Of a DNA stretch of 64,000 bases, positions 20,563 to 47,297 are shown in pieces. A model generated the notes under the pieces. It was not told where the DNA came from. It did not search any database and was given only the letters and a program-made list of their open reading frames with translations. The first letter of the stretch is position 1. Each line of letters begins with the position of its first letter. This DNA comes from a virus (Duplodnaviria; Caudoviricetes), in the IMG/VR virus record IMGVR_UViG_3300017909_001085, positions 1 through 64,000 of that record, one strand, 5' to 3'. A program made the position numbers and the translations under genes.

Positions 20563-20591
20563 AAACACCTCTCATTTCTCAGTATAGTTAT

Positions 20592-20620
20592 ATTGTACTA
20601 TACTTTATTGTGCTTGTCAA
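20592..20620 (-). promoter_or_regulatory. Sigma70-type early promoter
   Basis: TTGACA-N17-TACAAT. Confidence 0.75.
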
Positions 20621-31053: not shown

Positions 31054-31331
31054 TACAAATCCTCATCATGTATATACAATTGTATTAGTGCGTAGTGTAA
31101 GACCTTCATCAAATCTTTTCGGGCATCACTCGCCATACCCTTCTTGCCGTATCGTTGTGCATACTTTAGTACGTTACCGATACAGAAACCTGTGCCATGA
31201 CCGCCGTCTATAATAAACTCGGTCGCTTGAAACTTGTCTTTCGAATAGTGACCAGTATAGGTACTATCGATATAATCTTTGAACTCTTTAATCAGTTCTG
31301 CTTCATTAAATTTATAATCAATCTTACTCAT
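31053..31331 (-). CDS. DUF3310-like protein
   Basis: HY...GFCIGNVLKYAQRYGKK...DLMKVLHY. Confidence 0.7.
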   Translation of the reverse strand: MSKIDYKFNEAELIKEFKDYIDSTYTGHYSKDKFQATEFIIDGGHGTGFCIGNVLKYAQRYGKKGMASDARKDLMKVLHYALIQLYIHDEDL

Positions 31332-31359
31332 AATATCTCATATTGTCAAGGTAAAAGTA

Positions 31360-31407
31360 GGGGCGAGGTGGAGAGAAAGGTGACTGTAAGATGAACCACC
31401 TCGCCCC
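31360..31407 (-). ncRNA. 3' UTR hairpin with antisense loop (terminator-like; candidate regulatory RNA)
   Basis: Perfect 12-bp stem GGGGCGAGGTGG/CCACCTCGCCCC, 24-nt loop UUCAUCUUACAGUCACCUUUCUCU complementary to early-gene leaders, followed by UACUUUU. Confidence 0.55.
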
Positions 31408-31414
31408 ACACCAC

Positions 31415-31666
31415 CTAAGCGTTTACTGCTTGAATACCAGCGGCAATAATCGCCTTAGTTGGAGTACCGATACGATACGATACACCGTTACCCTTTTTCA
31501 CAGGGTTTGCATAGACCATGTAACCTTCGCTACGCAGGTCATAAACTCGCCTTGAAACATTAACTGTTGAAGTCTTTGCTTTACGAGCAAGTTGCTTTGT
31601 GGTGAATGTTTCACCTGTTGAAAGGGCAGTCAAAATCTTTGACTTAACGGAAGTTGCTTTACGCAT
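31415..31666 (-). CDS. Winged-HTH DNA-binding protein
   Basis: KILTALSTGETFTTKQLA...VSRRVYDLRSEGYMVY...YRIGTP; ATG at 31666 behind AAGGAG. Confidence 0.75.
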   Translation of the reverse strand: MRKATSVKSKILTALSTGETFTTKQLARKAKTSTVNVSRRVYDLRSEGYMVYANPVKKGNGVSYRIGTPTKAIIAAGIQAVNA

Positions 31667-31697: not shown

Positions 31698-31718
31698 GAG
31701 GTCGCCCTATGCGACCTC
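31698..31718. other. Hairpin in 5' UTR of HTH gene
   Basis: GAGGTCGC-CCTAT-GCGACCTC perfect 8-bp inverted repeat. Confidence 0.6.
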
Positions 31719-31730
31719 TATCATTGTTCT

Positions 31731-31759
31731 AATATAATCTTAGAACGGTGTTTTGTCAA
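31731..31759 (-). promoter_or_regulatory. Sigma70-type promoter for HTH gene
   Basis: TTGACA-N17-TATATT, -35 inside end of cobS. Confidence 0.65.
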
Positions 31760-32894
31760 CACTTGTTTCGGGTTCAGTAACACTTTCACCGAAATCAGTC
31801 TCGACTGCCTGCTCATCGACTTTCGTATAAAGGTCGATGAATGCAGACTTGGTCTCATCATCAAAACGATTGATACACATTTGTATCGCCTTCATTCTAT
31901 CACCGAACACGGCATATGCTTTGACAATGTGGACTAGACGCCTCGTAGCGATAATCTCATCGATACCACCATCGAGGAAAGTCTTTCTGATAATATCTGC
32001 CCACTTGGTCAGTTTATCAGCAAAATCATCATCTGGTTTACCAACAGAGGTCAACTCTTTATTGATGATTTTTTTCTCTACTGCAACGGCAGGATAATCC
32101 TGTTCGATACAGATTGGGAAACGCTCAAGGAACGCTTCGTTGAGAATATTAGTACCGATGAAACGACCGTCATCAGAACCTTTACCTTTAGTGTTTGCAG
32201 TAGCAACAATCTGAAACCCAGGAGCAGGTTGTACATACTGATTGATTTTCTTCAGTAGAATACCTTTACCTTCGAGGATTGGTTGCAAACACATAATCTT
32301 GTTTGACGCAAGGTCAATCTCATCAAGAAGCAGGACACCGCCTTGCTTCATTGCTTGAATAACTGGACCATCGAAAAAGACAGTCTCGCCATCAACAAGA
32401 CGATAACCACCGAGCAAATCATCTTCATCAGTTTCGATGGTAATGTTCACACGGAAAAACTCACGCTTCAGTTGGGCGCAAATCTGTTCGACCATCATGG
32501 TCTTACCGTTACCTGACAGACCAGTGATGAATACAGGATAGAACATTTTCGACTTGATAATGTTCTTTACATCACTGAACTGACCGAACGGTACATAGTT
32601 GTCATACACACTTGGTATCAAATTTGTCACCGTACTGTCTAAGACTGCCAACTTCTTCTTCGGCAGTTCTACTACTTCAGCAACTTCTTGTTGCTGTACT
32701 GGAGCAAGGTTTGAATTCGCAAACAACGAATACAGACCATTGCCAAGTTTGAACTCATCAGATTTTACAATCCATGAGGGAGCATATTTCATGCCCACTG
32801 AATTCGCAACTTCGACAAGTTCTGCACGACTGAATTCAGTCTGCTTCGGGAACATTGCTGTTGCGGCATTCAGGAAAGTATCACGCTTATTCAT
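31740..32894 (-). CDS. cobS: CobS-like/MoxR AAA+ ATPase
   Basis: GLSGNGKT, ETDEDDLLGG, LLLDEID, ANTKGKGSDDGRF, NEAFLERF. Confidence 0.9.
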   Translation of the reverse strand: MNKRDTFLNAATAMFPKQTEFSRAELVEVANSVGMKYAPSWIVKSDEFKLGNGLYSLFANSNLAPVQQQEVAEVVELPKKKLAVLDSTVTNLIPSVYDNYVPFGQFSDVKNIIKSKMFYPVFITGLSGNGKTMMVEQICAQLKREFFRVNITIETDEDDLLGGYRLVDGETVFFDGPVIQAMKQGGVLLLDEIDLASNKIMCLQPILEGKGILLKKINQYVQPAPGFQIVATANTKGKGSDDGRFIGTNILNEAFLERFPICIEQDYPAVAVEKKIINKELTSVGKPDDDFADKLTKWADIIRKTFLDGGIDEIIATRRLVHIVKAYAVFGDRMKAIQMCINRFDDETKSAFIDLYTKVDEQAVETDFGESVTEPETSVDKTPF

Positions 32895-32927
32895 AATATA
32901 TACCTTTCTTTTTTCATCTTACGTTTC

Positions 32928-32957
32928 ACTATAACATACGAAAACAAGTATTGTCAA
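32928..32957 (-). promoter_or_regulatory. Sigma70-type early promoter for cobS
   Basis: TTGACA-N18-TATAGT with TGn. Confidence 0.7.
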
Positions 32958-32970
32958 GCACTTTTTTCGT

Positions 32971-35244
32971 TTATGCGGCAATTTTTTCGATAAATTTGCT
33001 CAAGATTGCTCTGTTTTGCAACTTACCTTTCGCCGCTTTCTTGAATGCTGTAGTCAGTTTTTGCTTCGAAGCACCAACCTCAACATCAAGACCTTCATCG
33101 TCTACCTCAAGTGTCTTACCACCTTTGAGAATATACAGTTCATCAAGACCGCTGATTTTTGACACCGCACTCTTTTCTTTATTGAATTGCTTCTTCCAGT
33201 TCTCAAGTTCTACCCAAGCACTGGCGGCAGAAGAACCTGGTGTTTCAATATACTTGTTGAATGCATACTGAACATCAGAACGACCACTCGCAAGGAAGAA
33301 CCCCATAGTATTGAACCCGGTGCTTGCTTTAAGAGACATGTATAATGCTTTTGTCAAATCGCCACTATAATAATCGCTTGACTGACTTTTGATAGTCACA
33401 TTCTTAGATTTGTCACGGATGTAGAAGACACCTCTGGTGCTGATATCTGCTTCAGTTGAGTAGTACTCTTCACCATTGTATTTTTTGTCATACCCGATAA
33501 CTCCACTAGGTTTGTGACTTGAACCGTCTGTCAAGAAACATACGTTCATGACTTGGGCGCCAGTTGTCTTTTGAAACTTTTCAACCATCTTATGAGCAAC
33601 AATAACTGCGGCATCAAGTGGAGTACCACCAAGGTAGTATTTACGAGGCAGACCCATGTAAGCAAAGTCACCGTACCCATACTTTCTTGACCACATATGA
33701 GATAGTGCTACGCAAATCTCAACTGCTTGATTGAACTGCACTGTAGTCATTTTTGGACCAAACAGTTCTAACATAGTCACGCCTTTGACATTGAACTCAT
33801 TCAGATTAGTTGATTGTAAATCTTCTAAAGGTGTATTCACTGTTGAATGACGCTTGGCATATTCAGAAGAGAATGCATAAGCGGCGAAAGGTATTTGTGC
33901 TTTCTTACAGAACAATGCGAGACAAAGCAACTGCTCCATAGTACCTTTCATATTATCTGACATCGAACCAGACCAGTCAATAAAGAACATCATACCGTGG
34001 TTCTTACCATTCGGAAGATTAGTCTTTTTCATGAAGATATCTTCATTGTACTTGTATGAGTAAAGCAGATTTGAATTGATAACACCAGTCTTAGTAGTAT
34101 TTGCTCTGGCATAGATATCTGCCGCTTTCTTCATTTCAAATTCTTTATGAAGATAAGCAATCACTTTCTCATTTTTCTTTTTGAATTCTTTTGCGTTCTT
34201 AATGAGTTTCTCTTGAACGTCACTGACAGTCCAGTATTCCATCAGTTCTTTTCTAACTTCTGAAAAAGGAACTACAATCTTTTCGAAGTTGATAGTCTTC
34301 GGAATGTCATAGTACTTAGGAATCAAATCTTCGTTAGTCTCTACTAACTTCTTAGTACTTTTTTGAGATGCTTGGTCAGTGATAGACTTGACACCAGGAG
34401 CAGTACCGTCAGTATTTTCTGCTTTACCATCCATACCTTCTTTTGCTGGAGCAGGTGCTTTAGTCTCGGTCTTGTCTTCGCCATCATCGCCTTCTTCTTC
34501 TGGTGATGAAGCAGACTTACCTTCTTCTTCTGATTGTTCATCAGGAGTACCAGTAACAGCATTCATACCGTTACCTTGACCTTCTTGAGCATCGCCTTCA
34601 GACTGTTCATCATCTTGACCTTGTTCAGACTGAACTGGCATATTGTAAGCAGAAGTATCTTCTTGGTTCTGCTGTTTTTCTTCTAATTCTTTTTCGCAAT
34701 ACTCAAACAACTCTTTAGATAGTTCAATAACTTCTTCGAAAGTCTGAGTAGTCATTGCTCTATCGAAAAACTTCTGCTCAACATCATCGAATGTCAAATC
34801 AATTTGAGTACCGAGTTTTGCTTTCAGATTGAGACGGTCAATCAAAAGCATATCAGTGACAGGAACTTGTGAAGTACCGAAGAAATCTTTTTCTTGTAAC
34901 TGACCGTATGCCTGATAGAAAGGTTTCTTTAGACCAGGATACTTCTTTTGAATAAGACGCTCAATACGGGCATCTTCTACGACATTCACAACTGAATGAA
35001 AATTTTGTGTCTTGATTGGTAAGTTCTCCATACCGTCAAGAGGTGTATAGAGAGCATGAGCAACTTCATGACCAACAAACAAGTCTAGAGTTTTTGCGTC
35101 TAAGTCCTTCATAGTAGGAATACGCAATATACGATTTTTAACATCGAAACTAGCAGTATCGACATTCGCATACTCAACCGTCAAATTCTCTGTCGCTAGT
35201 AGTTTAGCGAGAGCAGACTTGACTTCTGTAATCTTGGTTGGCAT
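32971..35244 (-). CDS. CobT-like protein: N-terminal HExxH domain, acidic linker, C-terminal vWA domain
   Basis: GHEVAHALYT, NVVEDARIE, DWSGSM MIDAS, GGTPL, LTDG; ATG at 35244 behind GAGGTG. Confidence 0.85.
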   Translation of the reverse strand: MPTKITEVKSALAKLLATENLTVEYANVDTASFDVKNRILRIPTMKDLDAKTLDLFVGHEVAHALYTPLDGMENLPIKTQNFHSVVNVVEDARIERLIQKKYPGLKKPFYQAYGQLQEKDFFGTSQVPVTDMLLIDRLNLKAKLGTQIDLTFDDVEQKFFDRAMTTQTFEEVIELSKELFEYCEKELEEKQQNQEDTSAYNMPVQSEQGQDDEQSEGDAQEGQGNGMNAVTGTPDEQSEEEGKSASSPEEEGDDGEDKTETKAPAPAKEGMDGKAENTDGTAPGVKSITDQASQKSTKKLVETNEDLIPKYYDIPKTINFEKIVVPFSEVRKELMEYWTVSDVQEKLIKNAKEFKKKNEKVIAYLHKEFEMKKAADIYARANTTKTGVINSNLLYSYKYNEDIFMKKTNLPNGKNHGMMFFIDWSGSMSDNMKGTMEQLLCLALFCKKAQIPFAAYAFSSEYAKRHSTVNTPLEDLQSTNLNEFNVKGVTMLELFGPKMTTVQFNQAVEICVALSHMWSRKYGYGDFAYMGLPRKYYLGGTPLDAAVIVAHKMVEKFQKTTGAQVMNVCFLTDGSSHKPSGVIGYDKKYNGEEYYSTEADISTRGVFYIRDKSKNVTIKSQSSDYYSGDLTKALYMSLKASTGFNTMGFFLASGRSDVQYAFNKYIETPGSSAASAWVELENWKKQFNKEKSAVSKISGLDELYILKGGKTLEVDDEGLDVEVGASKQKLTTAFKKAAKGKLQNRAILSKFIEKIAA

Positions 35245-35276
35245 TTCAGTCACCTCTTTTCTCATCATCTATAGTC

Positions 35277-35306
35277 ATAATAACATATGACATCAGGTTT
35301 TGTCAA
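35277..35306 (-). promoter_or_regulatory. Sigma70-type early promoter for cobT-like gene
   Basis: TTGACA-N18-TATTAT with TGn. Confidence 0.7.
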
Positions 35307-35440: not shown

Positions 35441-35467
35441 AGATACCTCTCTCTCATCTCTATATAT

Positions 35468-35497
35468 ACTATAGCATGTAGGAATCTAATTTGTCAA
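35468..35497 (-). promoter_or_regulatory. Sigma70-type early promoter
   Basis: TTGACA-N18-TATAGT with TGn. Confidence 0.7.
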
Positions 35498-47268: not shown

Positions 47269-47297
47269 TTGACAACACCTACTTAGGTGCATATAAT
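47269..47297 (+). promoter_or_regulatory. Consensus sigma70 promoter in antisense orientation
   Basis: TTGACA-N17-TATAAT exact, with CACCTA-CT-TAGGTG palindrome in spacer. Confidence 0.75.

Follow-up and report, generated by a model that had tools for sequence, protein, structure and literature searches.

In bacterial small RNAs derived from 3' untranslated regions (3' UTRs), such as CpxQ and DapZ, an mRNA and the regulatory sequence have a common 3' end, and in the usual layout the seed precedes the terminator. The pocket of H/ACA guide RNAs is built from two guide strands that flank a stem, and the target crosses the stem top. In icaR of Staphylococcus aureus, an anti-Shine-Dalgarno (anti-SD) motif in the 3' UTR pairs with the SD region and blocks initiation (PMC3868564). 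The c4 RNA of phages partly covers a ribosome binding site (RBS) with one loop and gains upstream specificity from another, its target being the phage's own mRNA (PMC5320573). Review passages describe phage small RNAs mostly from temperate phages or as cis-antisense RNAs (PMC12197685). In T4, early translation is ended with cuts by RegB in SD sequences; RegB does part of this work, and the early shut-off of T4-like phages is only partly understood even in T4 (PMC3014915).

Here we analysed a window of 64,000 nucleotides, the first 64 kb of a linear virus genome record of 125,860 bp (completeness 70% according to CheckV) that comes from an uncultured marine T4-like phage. At the 3' end of the message of a small winged-helix (HTH) gene we found a hairpin with a large loop. 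It is a real, conserved and apparently undescribed RNA with good comparative evidence for pairing with early leaders; literature searches, with most subscription papers outside their coverage, returned no description of it. The best reading of the hairpin, and one that we consider fairly probable, is a 3'-end antisense RNA that is predicted to pair with early transcripts and to damp their translation. It would then probably turn early protein synthesis down by RNA, where T4 uses a nuclease: RegB is a protein that cuts GGAG, and the element described here is an RNA with predicted pairing to AGGU-type leaders. A search for homologues of RegB in this 70%-complete genome returned none.

Like the c4 antisense RNA of phages P1/P7 (RF01695), itself processed by RNase P, the element exposes two modules, one against the RBS and one against sequence upstream of it, a likeness that concerns complementarity only. 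Unlike c4, it is a single stem with one large loop and not three stem-loops, it lies at the 3' end of a protein-coding mRNA of a T4-like phage and not in a temperate immunity region, and its predicted targets include many unlinked genes. It also differs from the Cuckoo/CcsR RNAs, which are tandem hairpins with CCUCCUCCC loops, in being one hairpin with another loop, and no Rfam match was found in the window or in four loci of the clade. Besides blocking initiation, the icaR pairing creates a substrate for RNase III. As in icaR, an anti-SD motif is present in the 3' UTR, and pairing could possibly take place within one cobT-cobS-HTH transcript, on which the cobT and cobS leaders would be reached through read-through. 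Unlike in icaR, the SD of the preceding gene is not matched (-3.9 kcal/mol for the HTH leader, which has a GGAG SD), a module for 5' ends is added, and unlinked genes are among the predicted targets. With CpxQ and DapZ the element shares the position of the regulatory sequence at an mRNA 3' end, and two variants in relatives have the layout with the seed before the terminator; unlike in these RNAs, the seed in the window lies inside a terminator-like loop and the predicted targets are the phage's own early class. The element also has a conserved and accessible seed with predicted complementarity to unlinked mRNAs, as do trans-acting sRNAs derived from 3' UTRs; these further use an mRNA's intrinsic terminator, accumulate as discrete RNAs and depend on Hfq or ProQ. 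No phage Sm/Hfq match was found. The element resembles both the 3'-UTR-derived sRNAs and icaR, a likeness that does not establish membership of either group. Its likeness to the H/ACA pseudouridylation pocket is one of geometry only, and the geometry is here a model; unlike the H/ACA RNAs it has no H/ACA boxes or known proteins, and the pocket would be closed by a short linker instead of a lower stem.

A hairpin at the 3' end of the HTH message

The genes of the region follow each other in the order cobT-like peptidase, cobS-like AAA+ ATPase, small HTH gene, DUF3310 and gp45 clamp (Table 1). Gene calls and transcription starts are predictions throughout, and the 172 genes of the genome were called crudely. 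The nearest cultured homologues of the HTH protein belong to Pelagibacter and Methylophilales myophages. Its gene likely starts with the ATG at 31666 behind an AAGGAG SD, the start given by the ORF finder being 31687. All HTH-domain matches of the protein fell under the curated cut-offs and no single structural match was significant (best Foldseek E value 2.5e-3); the predicted fold is a winged helix resembling MarR/ArsR regulators. A GTDB search returned a single match, a distant HTH on a MAG contig of Verrucomicrobiales (L366); downstream of the stop codon of that gene we noticed a hairpin with a 17-nt AU-rich loop.

The palindrome over the -10 box of the HTH promoter is a candidate operator, which could serve autoregulation by the winged-helix protein, or a candidate RNA hairpin on cobS read-through transcripts. 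The hairpin at the 5' end of the predicted HTH transcript showed no conserved U-tail in the relatives and is possibly a stabiliser. A TTGACA-17-TAAGAT site lies directly past the 3' hairpin (31321-31349) and is not conserved in the relatives, so that expression of DUF3310 and gp45 probably depends on transcription through the hairpin. In the relatives compared, cobT, cobS and HTH have no conserved terminator between them. Elsewhere in the window a perfect antisense sigma70 promoter was seen at 47269 (+).

The perfect 12-bp stem given in the preliminary description is real: on the minus strand, positions 31396-31407 pair with 31360-31371 around a loop of 24 nt (31372-31395). The hairpin begins 7 nt past the HTH stop and a short U-tract follows the stem. 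The region folds with z = -3.2, none of 200 shuffles being as good, and when the whole predicted HTH transcript was folded the stem pairs reached probabilities of at least 0.98 and the loop was 98% unpaired. In canonical intrinsic terminators the loop has 3-8 nt and the U-tract adjoins the stem. Here the stem is strong, yet the U-tract is short and the loops of the element measure 19-26 nt, and the terminator scan of the window did not call the hairpin. The U-tract region probably acts as a leaky terminator or as a barrier to 3' exonucleases. HTH is covered by metatranscriptome contigs from three studies, which end at or in the hairpin, at 31363, 31376 and 31405; being assembled contigs, which show neither a discrete small RNA nor a strand, they hint weakly at transcription and at a 3' end in this place. 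They gave no cover over cobT, a gap to which no meaning can be attached. One RNA contig spans the end of cobS, HTH and the hairpin, which in a contig cannot prove a single transcript.

A plus-strand ORF at 31391-31555, for which the loop would supply the SD and the AUG, was rejected, as it had no PHROG match, a variable stem after the AUG and no plus-strand promoter scoring above background. A relic promoter on the opposite strand was likewise discarded, no -35/-10 pair being present at the correct spacing.

Table 1. Features of the hairpin locus and of its candidate targets in the window (RNA features and pairing sites as predicted)
Feature	Position	Strand	Basis or remark
Conserved RNA hairpin, 12-bp GC stem and 24-nt single-stranded loop	31360..31407	-	Folding, compensatory changes
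Loop module A (loop nt 1-11)	31385..31395	-	Complementary to the GUAAGAUGA tag at the 5' ends of early messages
Loop module B (loop nt 12-24)	31372..31384	-	Extended anti-SD; 5' part varies with the cobT-like RBS
Short U-tract	31352..31359	-	Sequence; U-rich tails in relatives
Winged-helix (MarR/ArsR-like fold) HTH gene	31415..31666	-	Hairpin within its 3' UTR
HTH sigma70 promoter, TTGACA-17-TATATT	31722..31759	-	Promoter scan and conservation
Palindrome over HTH -10 box	31722-31750		Conserved, covarying in relatives
8-9-bp hairpin at HTH transcript 5' end	31698..31718	-	Conserved, covarying in relatives
cobS-like AAA+ ATPase gene, candidate target	31740..32894	-	PHROG 249, Pfam AAA_5
cobS promoter and leader	32895..32957	-	Module A site 32913-32922 (predicted +1 to +10), module B site 32902-32909
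cobT-like / peptidase gene, candidate target	32971..35244	-	PHROG 459
cobT-like promoter and leader	35245..35306	-	Covaries with module B
45-aa peptide gene promoter and leader	35441..35497	-	Fits junction model; not above anti-SD control
HExxH gene promoter and leader	20563..20620	-	Generic anti-SD match only; not counted as specific target

The antisense modules are retained while their scaffold changes

We compared the element in 16 syntenic viral contigs and further metagenome contigs. In the 10 distinct relatives of the loop type the stem sequence is largely replaced, and all 110 scored pairs (110/110) are canonical; 10 of 11 positions show more than one type of pair. Pairs were counted from the loop outwards, since stem lengths differ between relatives. 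The 10-nt core of the loop, within module A, is invariant in all of them, so the conservation that the preliminary description had made a test of its proposal was observed. Five further loci (L011, L013, L090, L097 and L160) have a linear architecture in which modules A and B stand single-stranded before an ordinary tetraloop terminator. A divergent clade (L014/L176, HTH 43% identical) has the order B-A, a direct antisense copy of the leader, and these colinear modules match the clade's own cobT leader over 12 nt. The order in which the three architectures arose could not be read from the trees, whose resolution was too low. Keeping the antisense sequence while the scaffold is rebuilt suggests selection on this sequence as single-stranded RNA. 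Compared with random segments of the sense strand, the elements scored better in 18 of 19 leader tests (5% level).

Plain tetraloop hairpins close the genes of more distant HTH homologues, as would be expected if the element were simply a leaky terminator, with a loop that either remains from an inverted leader as a relic or binds protein or host RNA, and with incidental anti-SD complementarity. The reverse complement of the loop does resemble any SD-spacer-AUG stretch, and a pattern scan of viral contigs returned, apart from members of the clade, only 10 unrelated contigs in which the match was a reverse-complemented RBS. We regard this explanation as very unlikely: against it stand a non-SD core that is invariant despite total turnover of the stem, modules retained through two rearrangements, and the enrichment at +1 and the cobT covariation described below.

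Complementarity of the loop to early leaders

All five loop-leader matches listed in the preliminary description were present in the sequence with the G:U counts claimed, and the promoter scan placed all four of the named target genes behind TTGACA promoters. The claim of several targets held in part. In a control in which the anti-SD part of the loop was fixed and the remainder was shuffled, the matches to cobS (0/250) and to the early ORF at genome position 114672 (0/250) were never equalled, and those to cobT (p = 0.008) and to the ORF at 116101 (p = 0.028) were significant. The matches to the 45-aa peptide gene (p = 0.25) and to the HExxH gene (p = 0.36) were not significant in the same control and are generic anti-SD matches. 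The earlier caution that part of the signal is of generic anti-SD character is therefore correct for these two genes and does not extend to module A, which is not an anti-SD sequence.

Elsewhere in the genome the 9-nt module A core is matched six times, and three of these matches (32922, 114640 and 122583) fall at the predicted +1 of TTGAC promoters. The binomial probability of this enrichment is 1e-8, or about 7e-6 when cobS, which had already been picked in the preliminary description, is left out. The other two sites lie approximately 80-90 kb away, beyond the window, and had not been picked before; the loop thus predicts new early targets outside the window.

Among the 172 called genes, the start region of the cobT-like gene is the best single-duplex target (tied first, -20.7 kcal/mol). 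When the genes were ranked for both modules, with A upstream and B downstream, the top four were the ORF at 114672, which is again absent from the preliminary description, cobS, cobT and the 45-aa peptide gene. With 17 of 172 genes early, the chance of such a ranking is about 7e-5, a value to be read with the fact that three of the four were known when the loop was split into modules. Genome-wide comparison of early with other genes by single duplexes gave no significant difference for the whole loop (p = 0.07) or for module B (p = 0.10), and gave p = 0.011 for module A alone. Most late leaders have SDs of the GGAG type. As a separate observation on this genome, a tmRNA-like sequence is present at genome positions 103700-103980.

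Covariation with the cobT-like leader

For covariation, each element was scored against the leader of each relative and the matrix was double-centred. Cognate pairs of element and cobT leader were better by 2.3 kcal/mol (exact p = 0.0006, 8 de-duplicated types); p was 0.005 without the divergent clade and 0.0014 with six types, and as the types are mutually related these values overstate their independence. The changes that covary are located where module B extends into the cobT SD spacer, and a held-out locus (L097) fitted its own element type. No covariation of cobS with the loop was seen across the leaders of the relatives (p = 0.58). Co-variation of the loop with the leaders, as foreseen in the preliminary description, thus exists for the cobT-like RBS and not for cobS. 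Two contigs that have the linear A-B element, G003/G005, keep the window-type tag in their unlinked GUAAGAUGA leaders, and these leaders fit window-type module A better than their own, which pairs only through a bulge. This and the lack of covariation for cobS count against the antisense reading that we prefer.

Covariation with the RBS of an operon gene, the lack of a conserved terminator between cobT, cobS and HTH, and the RNA contig that runs from the end of cobS through the hairpin (not proof of a single transcript) would all suit an action in cis only, similar to icaR. Transcripts from the cobT and cobS promoters would read through HTH and end at the hairpin, and the loop would fold onto its own leader, which would limit translation or set the decay of the complete message; matches to unlinked genes would be a by-product of the shared leader. 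A relative in which a hairpin right after cobS matches its own leader (L050, see below) fits this explanation too. Against it, the invariant core of module A is, for most loop-type relatives, a poor fit to the 5' ends of cobT and cobS (about -5 to -7 kcal/mol) and matches unlinked early leaders of the present genome perfectly, and the strong promoter of HTH itself would give hairpin-bearing RNA that has no target in cis. We therefore consider an action in cis only to be unlikely.

Predicted geometry of pairing

The two cobS matches had been taken for alternative registers. This is not necessarily so: they occupy loop positions 1-10 and 15-22 without overlap, and the target bases that they use do not overlap either. 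Module B ends, and module A starts, directly at the stem, so that a target consisting of 5' tag, spacer and SD can cross the stem top, and the two cobS matches need not be alternatives in the model, as they fit one three-way junction. When a circularly permuted hairpin was cofolded with early leaders, six of them formed the same three-way junction (-16 to -23 kcal/mol); the HExxH leader reached -11.5 kcal/mol and the HTH leader only -3.9 kcal/mol. The cofold ignores closure, and with a linker of 0-6 nt full double pairing may be strained; partial helices or pairing of a single module are possible. For cobT a colinear register over SD and start codon exists as well.

In the antisense reading that we prefer, the 3' end of the winged-helix message would be a stable hairpin that displays a two-part guide. 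Module A would pair with the 5'-terminal tag of early sigma70 transcripts, including a near-terminal AUG, and module B with their AGGU-type SD region. The target would cross the stem top, with both helices meeting the stem in a three-way junction, or one module would act alone. Such pairing would block ribosome loading and damp the early class, comprising the cobT-like gene, cobS and the unlinked early ORFs at genome positions 114672, 122612 and 116101, as the HTH transcript or a 3' fragment of it accumulates. For the unlinked genes the action would have to be in trans, and for cobT and cobS it could be in cis or in trans.

The 5' tag of early transcripts

At least 115 viral stretches have GUAAGAUGA at the +1 position of sigma70 promoters, and 50 of these stretches carry at least two homologues of genes of the present genome. 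Many of the tag-bearing stretches come from more distant phages in which no such hairpin element was seen. A near-terminal AUG is present in early leaders of L233-L347 and of the window (32895-32922 and 35245-35271). In 21 of 55 cases the AUG of the tag opens a two-codon ORF, and in related leaders of the AUGAUGA type it is mostly in frame with the gene or coupled to it. Most relatives have a leaderless orthologue of the 45-aa peptide gene, and the copy in the window has an SD leader. In E. coli, 5'-terminal AUGs bind ribosomes and influence downstream genes (PMC4965119). The tag probably has a role of its own in translation and is wider-spread than the hairpin element, which would exploit it as a class label.

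These properties of the tag, together with the fact that module A covers exactly +1 to +10, also bear on whether pairing would repress at all. It could be real and shield early 5' ends from 5'-dependent decay, or block the upstream AUG alone, and so tune or raise expression. Such a non-repressive outcome appears distinctly unlikely, as the SD itself lies under module B, which covaries with the cobT SD-spacer, and occluding an SD normally represses (PMC3868564). It is extremely improbable, in our judgement, that the main target is a co-infecting related phage, which would be excluded by silencing of the shared early tag. The tag is widespread in marine T4-like contigs, c4 RNA serves immunity (PMC5320573), and the HTH protein has weak matches to Ren-like PHROGs (E 2e-4). 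These matches probably reflect the winged helix alone, and the covariation is with the RBS of the phage's own cobT.

Some tagged leaders are structured in themselves. At L241:8092 (minus) the leader folds on itself, and an antisense copy next to the tag sequesters it; L235, L237 and L281 have a structured, self-folding tagged leader with CU-rich segments before a DUF7717 gene.

Anti-leader hairpins at other positions in distant relatives

Several distant relatives show no anti-leader hairpin, and in others (L050, L040, L044, L058, L304, L239 and L308) such hairpins sit at other positions. We put forward, tentatively and as something short of probable, a wider proposal in which early shut-off in T4-like marine phages is carried out by RNA. 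A terminator-like loop would clamp the shared 5' tag and the SD in a three-way junction resembling that of guide RNAs, a whole temporal class would be silenced in trans in the role that RegB has in T4, and different lineages would carry loops of this kind at several places in their genomes. Marine T4-like phages are abundant; early shut-off by an RNA that recognises a 5' tag common to a whole class of messages would be a solution not reported so far. The element has approximately 50 nt and comes with natural compensatory alleles, and it would be a compact and portable anti-leader module for synthetic gene control.

In L050, a terminator-like hairpin lies approximately 20-55 nt past the stop codon of cobS, and its CU loop of 16 nt is complementary to the leader of the same cobS gene (-15.6 kcal/mol, frac 0.058). 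L040 (7264-7310), L044 and L058 (7280-7325) have the hairpin after cobS, within the HTH homologue's 5' leader; 11-12 nt of its loop are antisense to the SD region of the cognate cobS, and the loop also matches promoter-spacer sequence just upstream. Compared with the 3' hairpin of the window, this means that the end of the HTH mRNA that carries the anti-leader hairpin differs by clade. Downstream of a DUF7717 gene, L304 (7815-7870) has a hairpin with a loop that is antisense to, and colinear with, the tagged early leaders of that phage. A sigma70-driven hairpin with a 27-nt CU-rich loop stands directly before tRNA-Gly in L239 (5765-5830, minus) and L308 (3886-3945), and cleavage by RNase P could release it as a free anti-leader RNA. 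In L060 and L069 a tRNA-like element lies between cobS and HTH, at the place where L040 and L058 have the anti-SD hairpin.
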